From positions 1 to 24,433 of the forward strand of contig CAZLEW010000003.1 of NCBI GenBank assembly GCA_964558635.1: a stretch of 24,433 nucleotides of DNA. Direction: 5' to 3'. The notes beneath the pieces were generated by a model that saw nothing but the letters and a program-made list of their open reading frames with translations, was not told the DNA's origin and ran no database searches. Both the position numbers and the translations under genes were made by a program. Positions 4,949 to 12,882 of this stretch are shown one piece after another. Position 1 is the stretch's first letter. Every line of letters starts with the position of its first letter. Source of the DNA: an uncultured Candidatus Peribacteria bacterium. Lineage in GTDB: Bacteria > Patescibacteriota > Gracilibacteria > Peribacterales > Peribacteraceae.

Positions 4949-6310
4949 TTACGGCGTGGTCGTCTCGAAGTTGAGGTTAATGAAGCTTGCGGCGGCATTG
5001 GCGCTGGCGGTGCTATCTGCTGCAAGCTTCACGTAGATCGTGGCATATTGCGCTGTGGCATTGGTACTCGCCGTCCATGTACCTGCGGATTCAGGACCCG
5101 TCACGTTCGCCGTTGTCCATGATGTACTCGCGAGCCCGCCGCCGTTTGTCAGCGTTACGCTCGCACCAGCGGTATCTTTCATGCGCACCGTGACGTGGTT
5201 ATTGGCGGCAGATGCGACACCCGTCTTGTAACGGAACTCGATCGGCTTCACAGGATCCCACGAGCTGAAGTTGTTTGGGATACGGAAGCGAACAGAGATC
5301 CAGTAATCCTGGAGTGTGCCGCGTGTCGAGGTCCAGACGTAGCTATTATCAAGCGCAGCCGTACCACCGGAACCGTAGAGCTGACCGATATAGCTCGCAC
5401 CGGAGGAGAAGTACACAGCGCCTGGATACTCTGGCTGCATCGACATGATGAGACCTGAACCGTTGTTAACACTCGTAGCCGTCCATGTGAGGTTACCTGC
5501 GCCATCATTGGTGAGGGAACCGGCACCCTGCGCTGTCGGTGCGTTGTACGTCAATCCGCGGAGTGTGAGTGCACCACCGATATTGAGCGTCGCACCTGAG
5601 ATAGCTCCTTCTGTACGGATCGTGCCGGAAGCGGAAAGGCTTTGGACCTGCGCATTACCGTCGATACGGAGGGTCGAACCCGAGATACCCCCGACGACAC
5701 TCACGTCCTTACTGAACTGGAATCTCTGGCTAGAATGTAAGTACTTCAAGGTTTGGTTAGTCGTTTGGTTTCCGAAGGTAAGAACAGCGTCTGCACCTGT
5801 CGTACGATCATCGTTGATCGTAAAGTCGCCGTCGGCGCGGAAGGCACCCGACGCAGTGAGTTCACCATGCACCGCGGCTGGGCCACTCACGCGGAGTGTG
5901 GAACCCGAGAGGAAGGTCTTCGCGGTGATAGAACCAACGCCAAGGATGGCACCTGTGACAGTCAACGTACCGCCGACGGTCGCATTGCGATCGACGTTCA
6001 ACGACGAACCCGACATCGTGCCGAGGACGCTAATTGAATGTGAGAATTGAAATTTCTGCGTTGCGTAGAGGAACTTCATTGTCTTCGTAGAAGCACCGAA
6101 ACGAAGTTCGATATCCGATGTACCATTCCCTGCATCAATCTCTTGGAATGCTTCTGTATTCACAAGCAGTGTTGGCTTCCACGAGGAGGCGGCAGTCGCA
6201 ATCTGCGGTAACACACTCGACGCAACAAGTGCGAGCGCGGTAGCAGCATGCGTCACCTTGCGTAGTGCAAGGGAAGCGAGCGAGCCAGAAGTGTGTAGGT
6301 ATTTGTTCAT
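4949..6310 (-). CDS. Secreted fibre/beta-helix-like surface protein (453 aa)
   Basis: The likely start is MNKYLHT at 6310 rather than 6430. It has a signal-like segment ending QIATAA, repeated G(T/A)(M/I/L)SG(S/A)(S/T)L motifs, and a C-terminal domain paralogous to that of 6442..8763. Confidence 0.8.
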   Translation of the reverse strand: MNKYLHTSGSLASLALRKVTHAATALALVASSVLPQIATAASSWKPTLLVNTEAFQEIDAGNGTSDIELRFGASTKTMKFLYATQKFQFSHSISVLGTMSGSSLNVDRNATVGGTLTVTGAILGVGSITAKTFLSGSTLRVSGPAAVHGELTASGAFRADGDFTINDDRTTGADAVLTFGNQTTNQTLKYLHSSQRFQFSKDVSVVGGISGSTLRIDGNAQVQSLSASGTIRTEGAISGATLNIGGALTLRGLTYNAPTAQGAGSLTNDGAGNLTWTATSVNNGSGLIMSMQPEYPGAVYFSSGASYIGQLYGSGGTAALDNSYVWTSTRGTLQDYWISVRFRIPNNFSSWDPVKPIEFRYKTGVASAANNHVTVRMKDTAGASVTLTNGGGLASTSWTTANVTGPESAGTWTASTNATAQYATIYVKLAADSTASANAAASFINLNFETTTP

Positions 6311-6334
6311 AAATGTTTGTGGAAGTTTCTGATC

Positions 6335-6363
6335 ATTATAGCGAATAAAAAGTTTTTGCGCAA
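6335..6363 (-). promoter_or_regulatory. Sigma70-type promoter for the 6310 gene
   Basis: On the minus strand: TTGCGC (6363-6358), 17 nt, TATAAT (6340-6335). This supports the internal start at 6310. Confidence 0.7.
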
Positions 6364-6441
6364 GAGTAGATTTATTGGGTGGATGATGATGTTGTAGTGA
6401 TGGTGGTGATGGAGCGTAACGTGCGTACATAAAGGAAGGGG

Positions 6442-8763
6442 TTACGGTGTAAGGCGAACATACTTCAACTTCATACTGCCGATATGCGCCTGGTAGTTAT
6501 CTTTCGCGTAGAGCTTGAATTTGATGAGGAATTCCTGCCCGGCGGTCCATGTCGCACCAGTATCGAACGTGAGGGCAGATGTACCCCACGACGTAGATGC
6601 TAATCCCGTAGCGGATCCACCGAGCGCGACTGGCGTACCGTTCGTATCGAAGAGTGACACATCCACTTTGCTATTGGTCACATCGGCAGATGTTGTGCGG
6701 TACGACACCGAGAGTGGTGCACTGTCCCATCGAGCGAAGTCAGCAGGGAGCGATACACGAACAACAACGTCATAATCCTGCAACGTCGCACGTGTCGAAT
6801 TCCAGAGGTAGAAGTTGCGCTGTGTGATGTTATCGAGTGAGACAGAAAGCTGACCCGTATTCTCCGTCGCATCAGCTTGATAGCTCGCATTCTGGAATTC
6901 AGCATGCAGATTCACTTCGGTTGTTTGTTCGCGATCATCACTCAGAACAACGCGGAAGTCATTGATCTGCGTCACATTCGTTCCATTTGTTATGACTTCT
7001 GCAAGACGGATGAATGATTCATCGGTGGGGAAGCCCGATGTCCGAACAGTGAGACCACCCGACCCAATGAAGACCTGACTCGTCGTATTTGCTGGAACAG
7101 CAACACCCGATGCACCCGCGAAGTCTGTCACATCACCATTGATACGGTACGCGCCACCCGTGATATTCACAGACAGACCCGCGCCGCTGCTTACGCGCAG
7201 CTTTCCTTCGTCCGAGCCTGCAATGCTCGAGATATCAATACCGTTGATGAGACCCGTGACCACGAGGTCACCTTCGATGCGCACGTCTGCACTAAACGTG
7301 AAGCGATCGTTCAGAATGTCGTAGCTCAATGTTTTGGCAAGAGCTTGGCCGAATTGCAACGTAATCAGGCTCGAAGCAGTGTTATTCGCATCGACCACGA
7401 AGGTATCGCGATTGGTACCACCTGGCACAACCGCAACGGGCAAGAGGCCACCACTGCCAAGGAGTGGGATAGAACCACTTCCTGTGCCAATTTCACGCTG
7501 ATCGAGCAAGTCAGCATTCTGCGCAAACGGCACCGAGAGGATCGGCGAGCGATCGATCAGATCATCCGACGGATTCACATCGAGCACTTCGTATGCCGAA
7601 TCGAGGCTGCCCGCGGCTTTTACCTCGACCTGGAGGAAGAGGTTATCGAGATCCGACGTCGCGACCGCAGCAAGGTTTGGAAGTGTGGCACCCGTACCAA
7701 GGATAACCGAGAAGTACCCCTGGCTATCAGGCGTCACAACGTGCACTTCTTGGTATCCAGCGTACATTGCCGCTCCCGTATTAATGATACCAGCGTTGAC
7801 ATCACCCGTGACCAAGTCGCGGCTGTACCATTGACTGAAGCGAATGTAGTGCGGTGTGGTGATCGCCTGACCGGATGCATTCAGGAGATGACCATTATAG
7901 ACAGTGCGCTCGGGCGACGAGACAGCGGCTTCCGCTGCTTGCACCGTGAGGACTGCAGCAATCGAGAGTGCGATGATGAGCAATGCGACGTACCAGAGGG
8001 AACGACTGATGCGTCGGCGATGCAGCGACAGCAGAACGACGAGCAACGTCACAACGCAACCAAGAAGGAAGAACAGGAGCAAGAGCAACCATGTCCATGG
8101 CGATCCTGTGCATGCGGATGCAACAGAACCGAGTGCATCGACAATCACATCGCCAAGTGTTACGCCACGATCAGTCGAACGATCGATTGGTGGAACAGGT
8201 AACAGTTCGATGCGGTGGTAGAACCCTGCAGGGCAAAGGATCGATGCACATGCATTTGTGCTGCTCACGGATGATGTAGACGAAACGGATGCCGCTGGGC
8301 GGAGCGCTTCAGATGAAACTGACACATCCTGCGAACTCGAAGAGACCGACGAAGCTTGAGATGATGAGGAGGAAGAAACTGCGGATGACGATGAAGCGCG
8401 GGATGAACGCACGGGAGGATTCGTCGTGGTCGTGCCTTCGCCACGGTGACCACCATCATCTTCATCAGACGATACCGATGAAGCAGTAGACGATGCACCA
8501 GCGCTACTCGCGGGCACAGGAGGCGCAGTCGTAATCTGGAAATTATTGCTGTGGAGCGGAGCCTCTTGGCGCCACGAGAGATCACCCTGCATGCGGAAGT
8601 TCGTCGAGCCATGCGGCAGACCTGCTGCGTTGCCCGGGCCGACTTCTTGCATTTGGAACGTCGTACTCGCAGCAGCGGACACCGCACCGATGAAGGTGCA
8701 GAATCCCGTCACACCGAGGAGGAGTGAGAGGAGGGTGCCGATGACGGAGCGATTACGCGTCAT
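6442..8763 (-). CDS. Large membrane-anchored surface protein with Ser-rich linker, two internal TM helices and a tail-fibre-type module
   Basis: Signal peptide, poly-Ser linker, then TM-RRRISR-TM. After that comes a VYNGHL.N..G...IRF...G.FSV.LG...LQVEVK...SVPFA..A module seen in fibre-like proteins. The C-terminal domain is shared with 4949..6310. Confidence 0.8.
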   Translation of the reverse strand: MTRNRSVIGTLLSLLLGVTGFCTFIGAVSAAASTTFQMQEVGPGNAAGLPHGSTNFRMQGDLSWRQEAPLHSNNFQITTAPPVPASSAGASSTASSVSSDEDDGGHRGEGTTTTNPPVRSSRASSSSAVSSSSSSQASSVSSSSQDVSVSSEALRPAASVSSTSSVSSTNACASILCPAGFYHRIELLPVPPIDRSTDRGVTLGDVIVDALGSVASACTGSPWTWLLLLLFFLLGCVVTLLVVLLSLHRRRISRSLWYVALLIIALSIAAVLTVQAAEAAVSSPERTVYNGHLLNASGQAITTPHYIRFSQWYSRDLVTGDVNAGIINTGAAMYAGYQEVHVVTPDSQGYFSVILGTGATLPNLAAVATSDLDNLFLQVEVKAAGSLDSAYEVLDVNPSDDLIDRSPILSVPFAQNADLLDQREIGTGSGSIPLLGSGGLLPVAVVPGGTNRDTFVVDANNTASSLITLQFGQALAKTLSYDILNDRFTFSADVRIEGDLVVTGLINGIDISSIAGSDEGKLRVSSGAGLSVNITGGAYRINGDVTDFAGASGVAVPANTTSQVFIGSGGLTVRTSGFPTDESFIRLAEVITNGTNVTQINDFRVVLSDDREQTTEVNLHAEFQNASYQADATENTGQLSVSLDNITQRNFYLWNSTRATLQDYDVVVRVSLPADFARWDSAPLSVSYRTTSADVTNSKVDVSLFDTNGTPVALGGSATGLASTSWGTSALTFDTGATWTAGQEFLIKFKLYAKDNYQAHIGSMKLKYVRLTP

Positions 8764-8766
8764 GGG

Positions 8767-9324
8767 TTAAGAAGCGAGTGGGTCAATCGGATGTAACGGA
8801 GAAAAAGCGGCAGTGCCGGATACTTCCAGATCGGAAGCGGACGGCGCGCCAAAATGATCACGGAGCGGAGCTGACTGACGCTTCTGCTCGTGTGACTTCG
8901 TTGCTGCAAAGAAGAAACCGTACCGTGCAATCGTGCGGCCAACGCTGGATGCAGAAATCGAAACGCCGTACTGCCGCTTGAGTAATTCTGCAATCGCATC
9001 CTTGCCAAGCAGCGGCTGCTCACGGCGGACATCACGAATCAACGTGACGATGTGCTCAGCGATCTCTGGTTCGCGCACACGATGTGGGCGACGCGACTCC
9101 TCCTCGATCGTTCGAATATCACGAACATCAAAACGTTCTGCCCATCGCAAGAACGTCGAACGTGCGATACCAAAATGGCGACACGTAAGACTCACGTTGC
9201 TTTCATGTTCGAGTGCGTATGAAAACCACTTCAAACGTTGCACTGCATCTTCACTCAGCTCCAGCTCTTTCGCCCGCTTGAGCAGGTGACGAACATCCCG
9301 AAGGCGAATGGTCCACGAATGCAT
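8767..9324 (-). CDS. IS481/IS3-type helix-turn-helix DNA-binding protein lacking the DDE/integrase core
   Basis: RLKWFSY....NVSLTCRHFGIARSTFLRWAERFD...EESRRPHR...IRDVRREQPLLGK..I..LL..YGVSISASSVGRTI is a tandem-HTH transposase N-terminus. The ORF ends at 185 aa with no catalytic region. Its stop is 3 nt before the next ATG (TAACCCATG). Confidence 0.75.
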   Translation of the reverse strand: MHSWTIRLRDVRHLLKRAKELELSEDAVQRLKWFSYALEHESNVSLTCRHFGIARSTFLRWAERFDVRDIRTIEEESRRPHRVREPEIAEHIVTLIRDVRREQPLLGKDAIAELLKRQYGVSISASSVGRTIARYGFFFAATKSHEQKRQSAPLRDHFGAPSASDLEVSGTAAFSPLHPIDPLAS

Positions 9325-9375
9325 GAATATTTTTTTGTGTGTTGGGTCCGCGCGCGTACGCGAAAGACTCTCAAT

Positions 9376-9404
9376 ATTGTAGCACCTTTAAATATTTTCG
9401 TCCA
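9376..9404 (-). promoter_or_regulatory. Promoter of the HTH/surface-protein operon
   Basis: On the minus strand: TGGACG (9404-9399), 17 nt, TACAAT (9381-9376), with an extended -10 TG at 9384-9383. Confidence 0.65.
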
Positions 9405-9407
9405 GTA

Positions 9408-10672
9408 CCGTCGAGATGTATCTGACCATAGGCTTGCTCATGCGGCGCTTGATGTGAGAACGAGACGACAAGCAATCGACGCGCATGTATCGGAACATCG
9501 CCCAATGCGATACAAAACCATACGAAGTACATATGACGATTCACGCCCTAACTGACGCGGGGTTGTTAGAACAAAGCTCTAACCATAGCGACAAATCACC
9601 TACTACACGGATAGGAACACAACATGCCTGGATGTATCGGAACCTTACGCAATCAGCTAATGCGGTACAGTGGTATTATCACATCACATAGTTGATTCGG
9701 CGTCCAATGAGCAAATCGCATTGTGTACTAGCCAATAAAAGCATGAAGTACTCTTCATACATGATTCATGTGAAAAGTATAGAAATACATGATGCACATG
9801 CATCGGAACATGCGGCAGTCCTGCGACGTCATTGCACAGTGGATGTGATCAACTTCGCCCGTTCTGTTCTGGGTGTACCCGAACACATAGCACACAGTAA
9901 CAAACACAACGTCAAGCCGGGATATTACACCGATTGTCGCGGATGTATCGTGACACGTGTCCTTGCGCAGACATACAATTTTTTCGCTCTACGAAGCCCT
10001 ACTGTCGTGGACGTATCGGAACATATGTTTATATAAATGACACAATAAAGCATATACTGCAAGACAACGTACTCACGTCGCTGCAGGAAGAGCTATTTCA
10101 CCTGTGAGAAGGGTATCGCAGATGTATCAGAACTTTCCGCAGATATACAGTATACTGCACAAGCAAGCTGCATGGATCACTCCTCCTGCATCTAGTAGAC
10201 AAGATGCATCGCGTACGAACCGAAGAACACGCCGAGGGAGACTCCTCCAATTCCAACGTACAACACGTGTCGCGCATGTATCAGAACATGTCGCACACCT
10301 ACGATGTCATGACACAGCAAATGTACCATACTCAGCATGAGATGTAGCGCTTGTACCTGAACGTATGGCGTAATCTTGAACTCTAGAGCCTCACTTACGT
10401 CTATTCCATTCATTGTCGCGGATGTGTCGTGAACCATGGCCCTAACTTGGGATGCAAGAGTGTCGCTCTCCAAATGTCTGCTGTAGCAGATGTATCTGAA
10501 CAAATCGAAACTCTGTTTTACCGCAATAGAAACGCCGGGTGCATCGTATGTTTCGAAACATGTGTTCGAAGAACGCGCATTCAATTCCACTCAACAATCA
10601 TACAAACATCTTTAGCGCTTCCATCAGGACTAAACGGCATGCACCCCCTCTGTTGCGGATGTATCGGAACAT
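9408..10672 (+). repeat. Non-coding array of ~16 degenerate direct repeats (core ATGTATCGGAACAT, extended TGTCGCRGATGTATCRGAACAT) with ~70-bp period
   Basis: 14-mer starts at 9416, 9485, 9632, 9798, 9873, 9943, 10011, 10122, 10276, 10351, 10422, 10490, 10548 and 10659, with weaker copies near 9561, 9723 and 10204. All are on the same strand; most gaps are 68-76 bp. Confidence 0.85.
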
Positions 10673-10674
10673 AC

Positions 10675-10704
10675 TTGTATCCCTTTGGCGTATTCTGCTA
10701 GTAT
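10675..10704 (+). promoter_or_regulatory. Promoter of the SLH gene
   Basis: TTGTAT (10675-10680), 18 nt, TAGTAT (10699-10704), with an extended TG at 10696-10697. Confidence 0.55.
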
Positions 10705-10726
10705 TAGCACAATTTCCCCCATACTG

Positions 10727-11770
10727 ATGGTGCACCCTTCCCGCATCCTTTCTGCCCTCACGGTCGCCGCGCTCGTCGCTGCACCACTCTCGGCTTTTGC
10801 TCAAACATCGTCGTTTAAAGATGTCCCGACGAGTCATCCAGCATCTGCTGCTATCGAGTACCTCAAAGAAAAGAATATTATCTCAGGGTATCCCGATGGC
10901 ACATTTAAGCCAGAAGCAAAAGTAAACCGCGCAGAAGCACTGAAGATCATCGTGGCACCATACGTTACGCCAGAGATCCTCGCCACAGCCAGTTCAACCG
11001 TGTACGTCGACGTTCCGACTGGTTCATGGTTTCTTCCGTATGTTGAGGCTGCCCGCCAAATACTTGGAATCATCGATGGCCCGCCAAAAGCGACAAACTT
11101 CAACCCCACGCGCAACGTGAATAAAGCAGAGTTCATTAAAATGCTCCTCATCGCCAATAAGGTTGATCCCACGACAACGCTCGGTGAAATCCGCGGAGGA
11201 CTCGCAACCGATGTCACCAATCCCGACGAATGGTTCTACCCGCATATGCGCTTCGCTGTGGCAGCGTCGATGACGATGGTTGGCGAAGATGGCGCGCTCA
11301 ACCCAGGGCAAGAGCTAACACGCGGACAAGTCGCACTATTGCTCTACCGCTTAGAAATGTTCAAGCAGGGTCGCCGTACGCAGGCGTTGCTCACCGAAGC
11401 TGAAACGGAAATTATTAATGTACTCTCACTCTTTGAGAAGAAAGATATTGTGAATGCTGAGTATGCTGCGACGCGCTCAACCGTCGCTGCACGCGGCGCA
11501 CTGATCAGTGCTCCAGACGAGGCAATTGTGAAGGGAGCAGTGAAGATCTCTGAGGGGTTCCAAGCACTCGTACAGTCGTACAAGGCAGGCTTGAGCGGAA
11601 ACCTTGATGGGGCAATCGCACTCTCGGGTACGGCCTGGAACAGCGCCGCCAAAGCCATGGAATTTAGCCCGGGACTCAATGAAGTTGCTTTACAAATGCA
11701 GAAAATTGCAAAGACCATTGCAGACGACGCTCGCGCCCTGAAGGCGAGTGGCGGCGTACCGGCACAGTAA
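10727..11770 (+). CDS. S-layer homology (SLH) domain protein
   Basis: The likely start is MVHPSR at 10727, with a signal peptide ending SAFA. SLH motifs: FKDVP..H.A..AIEYL....IISGYPDGTFKPE..VNRAE, further copies VNKAEF and LTRGQVA. The C-terminus is helical. Confidence 0.9.
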   Translation: MVHPSRILSALTVAALVAAPLSAFAQTSSFKDVPTSHPASAAIEYLKEKNIISGYPDGTFKPEAKVNRAEALKIIVAPYVTPEILATASSTVYVDVPTGSWFLPYVEAARQILGIIDGPPKATNFNPTRNVNKAEFIKMLLIANKVDPTTTLGEIRGGLATDVTNPDEWFYPHMRFAVAASMTMVGEDGALNPGQELTRGQVALLLYRLEMFKQGRRTQALLTEAETEIINVLSLFEKKDIVNAEYAATRSTVAARGALISAPDEAIVKGAVKISEGFQALVQSYKAGLSGNLDGAIALSGTAWNSAAKAMEFSPGLNEVALQMQKIAKTIADDARALKASGGVPAQ

Positions 11771-11877: not shown

Positions 11878-12882
11878 CTAAATTAAATTCTGCACGAGCG
11901 CAATCATGCGTTCCTTCTCATTCGCATCACTCTGGGCAATCAGCAACGCGAGCGCCACGAGCGCGCTATCGCCAATGCGTCGCTCGCCCCCACTCCTAAG
12001 CTTCCCGTGCTTACGCAAATACAGAACAAACAAGAGCGACCCGATGCGTTTGTTCCCGTCGACGAACGGATGATCTTTGATGATGAAGTAGAGCAGATGC
12101 GCCGCACGTTCTTCAATGCTCATGTAGAGGGGCTCTGCATCAAACGTTTGATGCAGGTTTCGCAGAATAGACTGCAAGCCTCCAACGGGCCTCTCTTGGC
12201 CAAACAGCTCGCTCGCCGTCCCTTTCTTGCGCAGGTCTTTCGCGAGGAGCGCAATCGCTCGCGCGGCTTCCGCTTCTTCAAAATCACGGAGTTTCTTTGT
12301 TGTCCGAACCCGAAACGGCAGTTCACCATCATCAAACTGATGTAAGGTCGCCCAGCTGCGGGCGTAATCAGTAATGACATGCAACATGCCCTTCGCTTCA
12401 TCCCCCGAGAGCTGCCGCTGATCCGCTGCCGAGCGGATCATCCCGACTGTTTTTTCCAACTCGCTTAAATCCTTAAGGCGCACATCGCGCAAGCGACGTT
12501 GATTGAGCGTATATCCCTTCACCAGATGCCCCGTCAGGACCGATGTCGCCCACTGGCGAAACCGCGTGCCCTCTTTACTATTCACACGGTAGCCGACGGA
12601 GATAATCATATCGAGGTTGTAATATTCAACGCTGAACGTTCGGCCATCCGGAAGATGTGTAGCAAATTTTTTCACAGATTTTTTTGGCTTCAATTCTTCA
12701 CTGTCAAAAATACCCTTCATATGACGAGAGATACCCGATTTATCAACACCGAAAAGTGATACCATTTGGTTCAGACTCAACCATACGGTGTCTCCATCGA
12801 GCTTTACATGCACTGCCTTTGACGCACCGGCCCCTTTGTAGACGACAATATTTCCTGTCGGCGGCAGATTTTCATGTAGCAT
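11878..12882 (-). CDS. RhuM-family protein fused to a Fic/Doc domain
   Basis: N-terminal DTVWLSLNQM..LF...YYNLDMIISVGYRVNS..GTRFRQWAT (RhuM); C-terminal HPFVDGNKRIG (Fic/Doc motif). Confidence 0.9.
   Translation of the reverse strand: MLHENLPPTGNIVVYKGAGASKAVHVKLDGDTVWLSLNQMVSLFGVDKSGISRHMKGIFDSEELKPKKSVKKFATHLPDGRTFSVEYYNLDMIISVGYRVNSKEGTRFRQWATSVLTGHLVKGYTLNQRRLRDVRLKDLSELEKTVGMIRSAADQRQLSGDEAKGMLHVITDYARSWATLHQFDDGELPFRVRTTKKLRDFEEAEAARAIALLAKDLRKKGTASELFGQERPVGGLQSILRNLHQTFDAEPLYMSIEERAAHLLYFIIKDHPFVDGNKRIGSLLFVLYLRKHGKLRSGGERRIGDSALVALALLIAQSDANEKERMIALVQNLI

Follow-up and report, generated by a model that had tools for sequence, protein, structure and literature searches.

We describe an array of 16-17 same-strand copies of a motif of about 27 nt (9408-10677, + strand) in non-coding DNA of an uncultured Candidatus Peribacteria bacterium, and we are highly confident that a block of six of its units has been duplicated within the array. 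The window analyzed here is an entire 24.4-kb contig (C3; 24,433 nt) of a metagenome-assembled genome (MAG; G000) that comprises 0.96 Mb in 138 contigs, with 52.6% G+C and a completeness of 92.8%. The array occupies an intergenic gap of 1360 bp that holds no credible gene (9325-10684). It separates the divergently oriented genes for a 185-aa helix-turn-helix (HTH) protein (8767-9324, - strand), the candidate binder of the array, and for a secreted protein with S-layer homology (SLH) domains (+ strand). Our model, to which we assign a probability of roughly 0.55 for the whole chain of duplication, binding and regulation, is that the array is an operator or docking platform of this apparently transposase-derived HTH protein.

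A six-unit block is duplicated within the array

Cores 1-9 of the array start at 9416, 9485, about 9561 (degenerate), 9632, 9723, 9798, 9873, 9943 and 10011, and cores 10-17 at 10122, 10204, 10276, 10351, 10422, 10490, 10548 and 10659. A sequence-only reading of the window had proposed that the six units from 9632 to 10011 were copied onto the six from 10122 to 10490, with motifs retained and spacers diverged, and this duplication is real. Block A (9624-10113, + strand; units U3-U8 with their spacers) aligns to block B (10114-10600, + strand; units U3'-U8', right end approximate), and successive cores are offset by 490, 481, 478, 478, 479 and 479 bp. The mapped internal gaps agree (75, 75, 70 and 68 bp against 72, 75, 71 and 68 bp). 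The finer resemblances in that reading were all recovered, namely the TGTACC variant in both fourth units, 20/21 identities between 9933-9953 and 10412-10432, and 32/42 between 9798-9839 and 10276-10317, for which the best 42-nt window in 200 shuffles reached 26.

The proposed mapping also had the highest score of the 720 permutations of partner units (local-alignment sum over whole units 150; mean 106, sd 11.6). When 9612-10111 was aligned with 10102-10600, the gapped alignment scored 82, far over the 7.8 ± 3.8 (maximum 27) of a control that shuffles the spacers of block B alone and leaves its cores in place. The best 60-nt self-diagonal across the gap had an offset of 478 and 43/60 matches, against a shuffle maximum of 33. 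As in a higher-order repeat, unit i of one block is most like unit i of the other, and the two blocks share variants and offsets. The signal is uneven. Two pairs, 9798/10276 and 9943/10422, dominate it; taken singly, 9723/10204 and 9873/10351 score weakly, and the two degenerate slots add little. It is visible only when the comparison is restricted to the blocks or to 60-nt windows, and diagonal identity over the whole gap did not single out 478/479. Tandem Repeats Finder reported nothing in the array, to which it is blind because the units are too diverged.

Identity between the blocks is not uniform. In the ungapped register the cores (-8 to +13) are 65% identical and the spacers 38-43%. The contrast is modest, at 65-75% against 40-52%, with a Fisher p of 0.02 to 0.0004 depending on how gaps are counted. 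Units that are not partners already have cores that are 58% identical (spacers 26%), compared with 65-75% for partner cores and 41-44% for partner spacers in the ungapped register, and part of the core identity between the blocks is therefore convergence on the consensus.

Contigs from single sequencing runs span 9970-10284 and 10058-10208 without differences. Since they cross the junction between the blocks unchanged, the structure is not a product of MAG assembly. A second study contains a strain that is 98.5% identical, and the populations with the locus come from wastewater. As such, the duplication is what unequal recombination among repeats ordinarily produces; among the other long arrays (G015, G105, G062 and others) no block duplication of comparable clarity was found.

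The junction points to unequal exchange between two cores

The unit at the junction (10114-10140, + strand; core 10122) resembles U9 on its upstream side and continues as U3' on its downstream side. Its core lies 111 bp after U8, and U9 in related alleles lies 110-112 bp after U8, while the sequence downstream of 10122 is a copy of that after 9632. From 9632 to 10122 it is 490 bp, and in the relatives U3 and U9 are 489-492 bp apart. This arrangement would fit an unequal homologous exchange in which the U9 core on one chromatid recombined with the U3 core on the other. Our model suggests that such recombination between cores 490 bp apart would duplicate six units in tandem, so that the array would grow from about 11 to about 17 slots. 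The spacers of both copies would then drift while the cores stay near the consensus, and copy B would gain small indels plus one extra site. Block A retains the ancestral slot spacings of 166, 145, 68 and 111 bp, and block B is altered by -9, -3 and +1 bp.

The extra site (10540-10566, + strand) lies within an additional 58 bp of block B and contains a perfect 14-bp palindrome, ATGTTTCGAAACAT, at 10548-10561. It lies 58 bp beyond U8', and the last unit follows it at exactly 111 bp, which is the canonical U8-U9 distance; neither block A nor the relatives have a slot that corresponds to it. The last unit, U9 (10651-10677, + strand; core 10659), is orthologous to the last unit of the relatives and abuts the putative promoter of the SLH gene. 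Its core is 19/22 identical to that of the nearest relative, the metagenome contig L123, and the next 44 nt are 43/44 identical. The surrounding pattern GGAACAT-CTTGT ... CTGCTAG ... TTCCCC is common to the window and the congeners G001-G003. An element CGCT-N6-AGRGCT occurs at 10077-10093 and 10613-10629, 45 bp upstream of cores 10122 and 10659, and is kept upstream of the last unit in G001, G002, G003 and L125; it may be a second protein-binding site.

The spacing of the sites is conserved in related alleles

We compared the window with four congeners (G001, G002, G003 and G005) and three metagenome contigs (L123, L124 and L125). All seven alleles have the array between the same pair of genes, and their HTH proteins are 56-87% identical to that of the window. 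Their intergenic gaps measure 801, 847, 825 and 578 bp in the congeners and 857, 864 and 869 bp in the metagenome alleles. The excess of about 537 bp in the window, with its six or seven extra slots, is absent from 7/7 relatives, so the extra block is specific to the lineage of the window.

Counted from the start codon of the HTH gene, the slots of the window fall at 92, 161, 237, 308, 474, 619, 687 and 798. Those of G003 fall at 92, 161, 237, 307, 471, 617, 687 and 798; those of G001 at 94, 163, 310, 476, 622, 690 and 802, with the third slot empty; and those of G002 at 161, 239, 310, 476, 622, 690 and 802, with the first slot empty. L123 has the same intervals as the others, shifted by 8. 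In all relatives the last unit lies at about 790-803, right before a promoter-like stretch TTGTGA-N18-TAnnnT, and this unit and its downstream sequence correspond to 10659 of the window and not to 10122. Across the seven alleles the distances are 146-149 bp for U2-U3, 164-166 bp for U3-U5, 145-147 bp for U5-U7, 68-70 bp for U7-U8 and 110-112 bp for U8-U9. Slot spacing thus varies by no more than 1-2 bp, despite spacers that have been rewritten.

At the species level of divergence, the spacers of these alleles are 27-31% identical, which is background, the cores 59-67% and the flanking genes 71-77%. Orthologous cores are barely more alike than non-orthologous ones; the cores are held near the consensus, not frozen. 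One pair of alleles, G001 and L125, can be aligned throughout, with identities of 91.9% in the flanking genes, 78.5% (124/158) in the cores and 73.5% (456/620) in the spacers. Their spacers contain 43 gap columns, and the net slot shifts are nevertheless no more than 1 bp. Each site is weakly constrained and the grid strongly constrained. The earlier proposal that selection preserved the motif and its spacing is supported, and its decisive basis is the other genomes, with their fixed slots over randomized spacers, rather than the comparison of blocks A and B.

These alleles also bear on the reading of the array as a decayed CRISPR-like or small-RNA array with repeats of about 27 nt and spacers of about 43 nt. 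Its period of 68-75 bp and its repeat length are within CRISPR ranges, all copies have a single orientation, and spacers are unrelated between relatives. However, the cores are only about 58% alike, and all relatives share the slot number and the irregular spacings (69, 147, 166, 145, 68 and 111 bp), a constancy not expected under spacer acquisition. Under neutral decay, moreover, the repeats would be lost no less than the spacers. We find this reading scarcely credible. A CRISPR array as such was rejected as well, in view of the degenerate repeats, the conserved slots and the lack of polar spacer turnover. Cas1 (PF01867) was found neither in the 92.8% complete genome nor among the open reading frames (ORFs) of the window that were scanned, and Rfam and tRNA searches returned no known RNA family and no tRNA.

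Motif clusters accompany HTH genes across the family

The information of the motif is confined to about -8 to +14 around the start of the core, with none in the spacers. The family consensus is TGTnnCGgATGTaTCTGAACtTTnnnC (27 nt). It consists of two direct 8-nt half-repeats, TGTnnCGg and TGTaTCTG, nine bases apart and followed by AAC-TTT; the quasi-palindrome of the motif in the window is genus-specific. The cores of the window are pairwise about 58% alike, and each 22-nt core differs from all the others. Of the 12 matches in the genome with at most one mismatch, eight fall within the array, which in a weight-matrix scan of the same genome is the only motif cluster.

Motif clusters are tied to HTH-family genes throughout the family. 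At 28 orthologous loci the weight matrix of the window gave 72 upstream matches on the same relative strand and 3 on the opposite strand, with adjacent spacings concentrated at 61-81 bp and roughly at multiples of 70 bp. The arrays range from 2 to 17 sites between genera, and slots and cores persist across at least 25 genera. On a 1.39-Mb contig of another genus the sole cluster is a set of seven sites upstream of the HTH orthologue, and two HTH paralogues on that contig are each preceded, at a distance of 250-300 bp, by a single site of the same relative orientation. We also scanned 121 family genomes with a sequence model of the site and read the result off the table by eye. Among the contigs inspected, all with at least two matches within about 1.5 kb were HTH loci, including loci outside the set from which the model had been built, and genomes without an HTH homologue had scattered single matches only. 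The clusters lay upstream of the HTH-family genes and in one orientation throughout. HTH homologues occur in 67/121 of these genomes.

If the array were read by a different binder, such as a nucleoid protein, a distant regulator, or RNA polymerase with an extracytoplasmic function (ECF) sigma factor, the HTH gene would merely be a conserved neighbor. The motif contains GAACTTT, which we take to resemble ECF -35 elements, for example those recognized by sigma-E, sigma-W and sigma-X; four short ORFs in the genome belong to the sigma-70 family and have the size of ECF factors; and CGT is mildly enriched 29-32 nt after the start of the core (16/115 sites). In contrast, motif copies follow HTH paralogues at unlinked loci, as expected of an own operator and not of a general factor. 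There is also no -10-like conservation: the information beyond +18 does not exceed 0.31 bits, and only 14% of sites have a suitably placed CGT. We therefore consider a different binder unlikely. A plain array of ECF promoters was rejected too: the consensus includes the -35-like TCTGAAC-TTT, but no conserved -10 (CGT) lies 16-17 nt downstream.

A transposase-type HTH protein, fused to a surface protein in other genera

The HTH protein matches HTH_32, HTH_28, HTH_29 and HTH_33 of Pfam, and positions 1-111 of the 284 of the NCBIfam model for IS481 transposases (NF033577; E 1.3e-19), with a score of 70.8 bits against a cut-off of 224. The DDE (rve) catalytic domain had no match in the 185 residues. 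By these matches, the protein appears to be the N-terminal DNA-binding part of an IS481-type transposase without the catalytic part. Its AlphaFold model has a predicted local distance difference test score (pLDDT) above 90 over residues 10-150, followed by a disordered tail. The fold matches of this model are weak but coherent, as they are to the bipartite HTH domains of Pax paired, TnsB, SETMAR and MuA. A bipartite HTH fold fits a bipartite site of 27 nt, which counts for the HTH protein as the binder. An exact look-up of the protein returned no record, and a sequence search against solved structures gave nothing useful.

In at least eight other genera the HTH forms the N-terminus of open frames of 896-1045 aa that run into the orthologue of the 773-aa protein encoded directly after the HTH gene in the window. 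We verified the fusion in G064 (L024, 1-1962), in which the divergent neighbor is again an SLH gene; there the order is HTH, hydrophobic segment, and Ser/Thr-rich and surface domains, the topology being assigned by inspection. Such frames also occur in G024, G121, G077, G042, G113, G063 and G092. In the genus of the window, the HTH and the 773-aa protein are separate genes, and the downstream gene starts just past the HTH stop codon. The window genome has, in addition, a paralogous HTH on another contig (C130, L011, 795-1900), fused to both a transmembrane segment and a surface domain that resembles the one in the 493-aa protein encoded in the window. Two motif matches (806 and 930) lie upstream of this paralogue in the same relative orientation.

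A transposase-type protein beside its presumed sites raises the possibility of a neutral relic, either of a mobile element, with transposase sites as in the ends of Tn7, Mu and Tn402, or of a satellite spread by slippage, with no present function. The HTH is transposase-derived by its matches, TnsB and MuA, both of which bind several same-orientation sites per end, are among its top fold matches, and the number of units changes by unequal crossover. However, slots and cores persist across alleles with saturated spacers and across genera, no catalytic domain, terminal inverted repeat or target duplication was found, and the genome's real IS481-like element ends in AGGGTWACAC, unlike the motif. 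A relic is thus very unlikely. This element (C121, L046, 1291-2281) encodes a full-length IS481-like transposase of at least 304 aa, and its contig stops at the right end. It is the only full-length IS481-like element in the genome and has unrelated ends, so we also rejected insertion-sequence inverted repeats as the source of the motif. That the array is a mobile-element end was rejected on the grounds that all motif copies are direct, with no inverted repeats and no catalytic gene.

Divergence from the nearest relative is concentrated in the DNA-binding half of the HTH gene and in the array

Compared with L123, the window is 95-100% identical over 7415-9014 and 10707-11554. Between these segments lies an island of divergence (9015-10650) that covers the DNA-binding half of the HTH gene and the array. 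Identity falls to 65-81% over 9015-9343, about the first 103 codons of the HTH gene, and to background over 9344-10606, for which BLASTN gave no match. The sequences recover at the last unit, reaching 98-99% from 10707. Divergence inside the island is at the between-species level. Most simply, the DNA-binding half of the HTH gene and the array may have been exchanged together, as one cassette, by recombination, with the caveat that L123 could be a chimeric contig. Such co-inheritance would be in favor of the HTH protein as the binder of the array.

The duplication had been placed long ago by the sequence-only reading. This holds with respect to the flanks, since the two copies are far more diverged than these, but not with respect to the alleles, as the copies are less diverged than any sampled allele pair. 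With spacers about 40-50% identical, blocks A and B are younger than the split of any two sampled alleles and much older than the flank divergence from L123.

A model for the array

We hypothesize that the 185-aa HTH protein binds the asymmetric sites of about 27 nt, which run in one direction in fixed slots about 70 bp apart. The array would fill the space between the -35 elements of two divergent promoters, and the bound complex would set the expression of both the operon of HTH and surface-protein genes and the SLH gene. In other genera the binder domain would be the cytoplasmic N-terminus of a membrane and surface protein of about 1000 aa. Binding of the motif by the HTH protein is what the family-wide association and the fold would predict, and a regulatory output is what the position between two promoters would suggest.

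Several observations weigh against this model. The sequencing runs that contain the locus are all of DNA, at depth 2-7. The fold matches of the protein to known DNA-binding domains all have E >0.1. The window and L123 have the same consensus despite the diverged N-terminal halves of their HTH proteins, with no covariation of specificity. Constraint per site is weak, the cores of G001 and L125 being only slightly above their spacers (p ~0.2, our own estimate), and ten to seventeen sites at a spacing of about 70 bp far exceed the needs of an ordinary operator. Nor are the spacings whole helical turns, 68-69 bp being about 6.5 turns, and a Rayleigh test of helical phase over 78 spacings gave at best p ~0.015, at 10.7 bp and uncorrected. 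Consequently, simple same-face cooperativity does not explain the geometry. Finally, the extra 58 bp of block B with the palindromic site at 10548 are left unexplained by a single crossover.

Alternatively, the array could be a structural docking or tethering element and not a transcriptional operator. A membrane-anchored HTH protein would then pin the chromosome to the envelope or build a solenoid-like complex, with the sites as a ruler of about 70 bp (about 24 nm), by analogy with RacA-ram or a plasmid centromere. The spacing kept to ±1-2 bp irrespective of helical phase, the many redundant and weakly constrained sites, the fusion of the HTH to a transmembrane or surface protein in other genera and the variation in site number from 2 to 17 all speak for such a role. 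It sits less well with paralogues that have one or two sites, as for an autoregulated gene, with the separate, soluble HTH protein in the genus of the window, and with terminal units that abut promoter -35 elements. Likewise, no ParA-type ATPase, segregation or replication-initiator gene was detected among the 19 ORFs of the window scanned with Pfam. We regard docking without regulation as possible but rather unlikely.

A broader proposal would be an undescribed Peribacteria system. Here the HTH of a domesticated transposase, which in the ancestor or on repeated occasions would have formed the cytoplasmic head of a giant envelope protein, would bind the array as a ruler of about 70 bp (about 24 nm) and so couple the locus to the envelope or build a nucleoprotein scaffold. 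Such arrays would grow by higher-order duplication, the HTH half and the array would be exchanged as a cassette, and the whole would be a bacterial counterpart of CENP-B and satellite repeats. We consider this distinctly improbable in its entirety.

Promoters, neighboring genes and genomic setting

The 5' region of the HTH gene with its conserved promoter (9325-9407, - strand) ends at the start of the first array unit. It is about 98% identical between G001 and L125, compared with 73-78% in the interior of the array, and is the sole part of the gap with a BLAST match in G001; its -10 and -35 elements were assigned by eye only. On the other side, a putative promoter of the SLH gene (TTGTAT-N18-TAGTAT) and its leader lie at 10672-10725 (+ strand), also assigned by eye, and the corresponding TTGTGA-N18-TAnnnT layout is kept in G001, G002 and G003. 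The SLH gene (10726-11770, + strand) likely starts at the ATG at 10726, followed by a signal peptide, and its product matches Pfam SLH (E 7e-26). It is the divergent neighbor of the HTH gene in the congeners and in several other genera.

The 773-aa protein (6442-8763, - strand), encoded directly after the HTH gene, has a signal peptide, a Ser-rich stretch and transmembrane segments, and searches of Pfam and NCBIfam gave no match. We observed that the genes at 4949-6430 and 6442-8763, both located after the HTH gene on the minus strand, encode two large secreted proteins with a common C-terminal module (…W-S-TR-TLQDY…) and without a Pfam or NCBIfam match. A gene for a RhuM/Fic-domain protein (11878-12882) comes right after the SLH gene, in the opposite orientation.

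The distance between dnaA and the HTH locus is 770 kb in the 1.7-Mb genome G059 and 614 kb in the 1.4-Mb genome G140. This had suggested a position at the terminus, but we dropped the idea of a replication origin or terminus. In the 1,385,808-bp contig C1 of G059, the cumulative GC skew rises monotonically, with no V and no feature at dnaA (1,225,088). Bacterial chromosomes do not usually show such a skew, which may stem from the assembly. Short repeats at the origin are noted in the Peribacteria genome paper, which contains nothing that links them to the motif (PMC4736985).

Discussion

Our results reveal a family-wide array, constrained in its spacing and tied to an HTH of putative transposase origin, in many cases part of a fusion with an envelope protein, and the interest of the locus lies in this combination. 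Bacteria of the candidate phyla radiation have tiny genomes with very little non-coding DNA. The Peribacteria family nevertheless keeps 0.5-1.4 kb of it here, in which only a 27-nt motif and the distances between its copies are conserved; this is an unusually clean signature of a machine that acts at the level of DNA. To our knowledge, there are few documented bacterial cases in which a transposase DNA-binding domain has been recruited to host use. The fusion of the HTH to a large surface protein may be a sign that the chromosome is directly connected with the envelope in organisms that are attached to host cells. In addition, the duplication is a natural experiment, which indicates how such an array grows, with new units that stay close to the consensus and keep to the spacing grid. 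With a 150-residue protein and synthetic DNA, the system can be put to the test.

A search of the literature for such arrays found no description, and the closest known systems each match it in part. CRISPR arrays share the period of about 70 bp, the single orientation and the spacers that are unrelated between relatives, but the window has degenerate repeats in positionally conserved slots, with no cas genes or leader-end turnover found.

Plasmid centromere and iteron arrays (F sopC/SopB, R1 parC/ParR and Rep-iteron) are closer. They too are same-orientation copies of a short site beside the gene of the presumed binder, their copy number shifts by unequal recombination, and protein and sites are inherited together. 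However, those arrays consist of contiguous units of 11-43 bp, whereas the array of the window has a spacing of about 70 bp and unrelated spacers. It is also chromosomal, family-wide and placed between the promoters of two surface proteins, with no partition ATPase or replication gene seen nearby.

The ends of Tn7 and CRISPR-associated transposons (TnsB) and of Mu (MuA) likewise carry sites of about 20-27 bp in one orientation, read by the bipartite N-terminal HTH of a DDE transposase, and the TnsB fold match of the HTH protein has a probability of 0.87-0.91 (E 0.4). Each of those ends has three or four sites within 90-150 bp, beside a cleavage site and a catalytic protein, whereas the arrays described here have 11-17 sites over 0.8-1.3 kb, without a DDE domain or element ends.

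With alpha-satellite and CENP-B, a domesticated pogo transposase, the likeness is one of analogy only. Both combine a transposase-derived bipartite HTH with a short box at regular intervals in diverging units, and in both a multi-unit block is duplicated as a higher-order repeat. The array measures 1.3 kb rather than megabases, its spacers are not homologous monomers, a segregation role has no evidence, and the fold match of the HTH protein to CENP-B is negligible (rank 25).

The ToxR and CadC regulators differ in having an OmpR-type winged helix instead of a transposase-type paired HTH, and the external part here is a surface protein of about 800 aa; moreover, the protein is split in two in the genus of the window and has many more sites. 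Their plan is otherwise that of the fused orthologues, in which a cytoplasmic N-terminal DNA-binding domain is followed by a transmembrane segment and a large external domain, and in both cases direct-repeat sites lie beside promoters.

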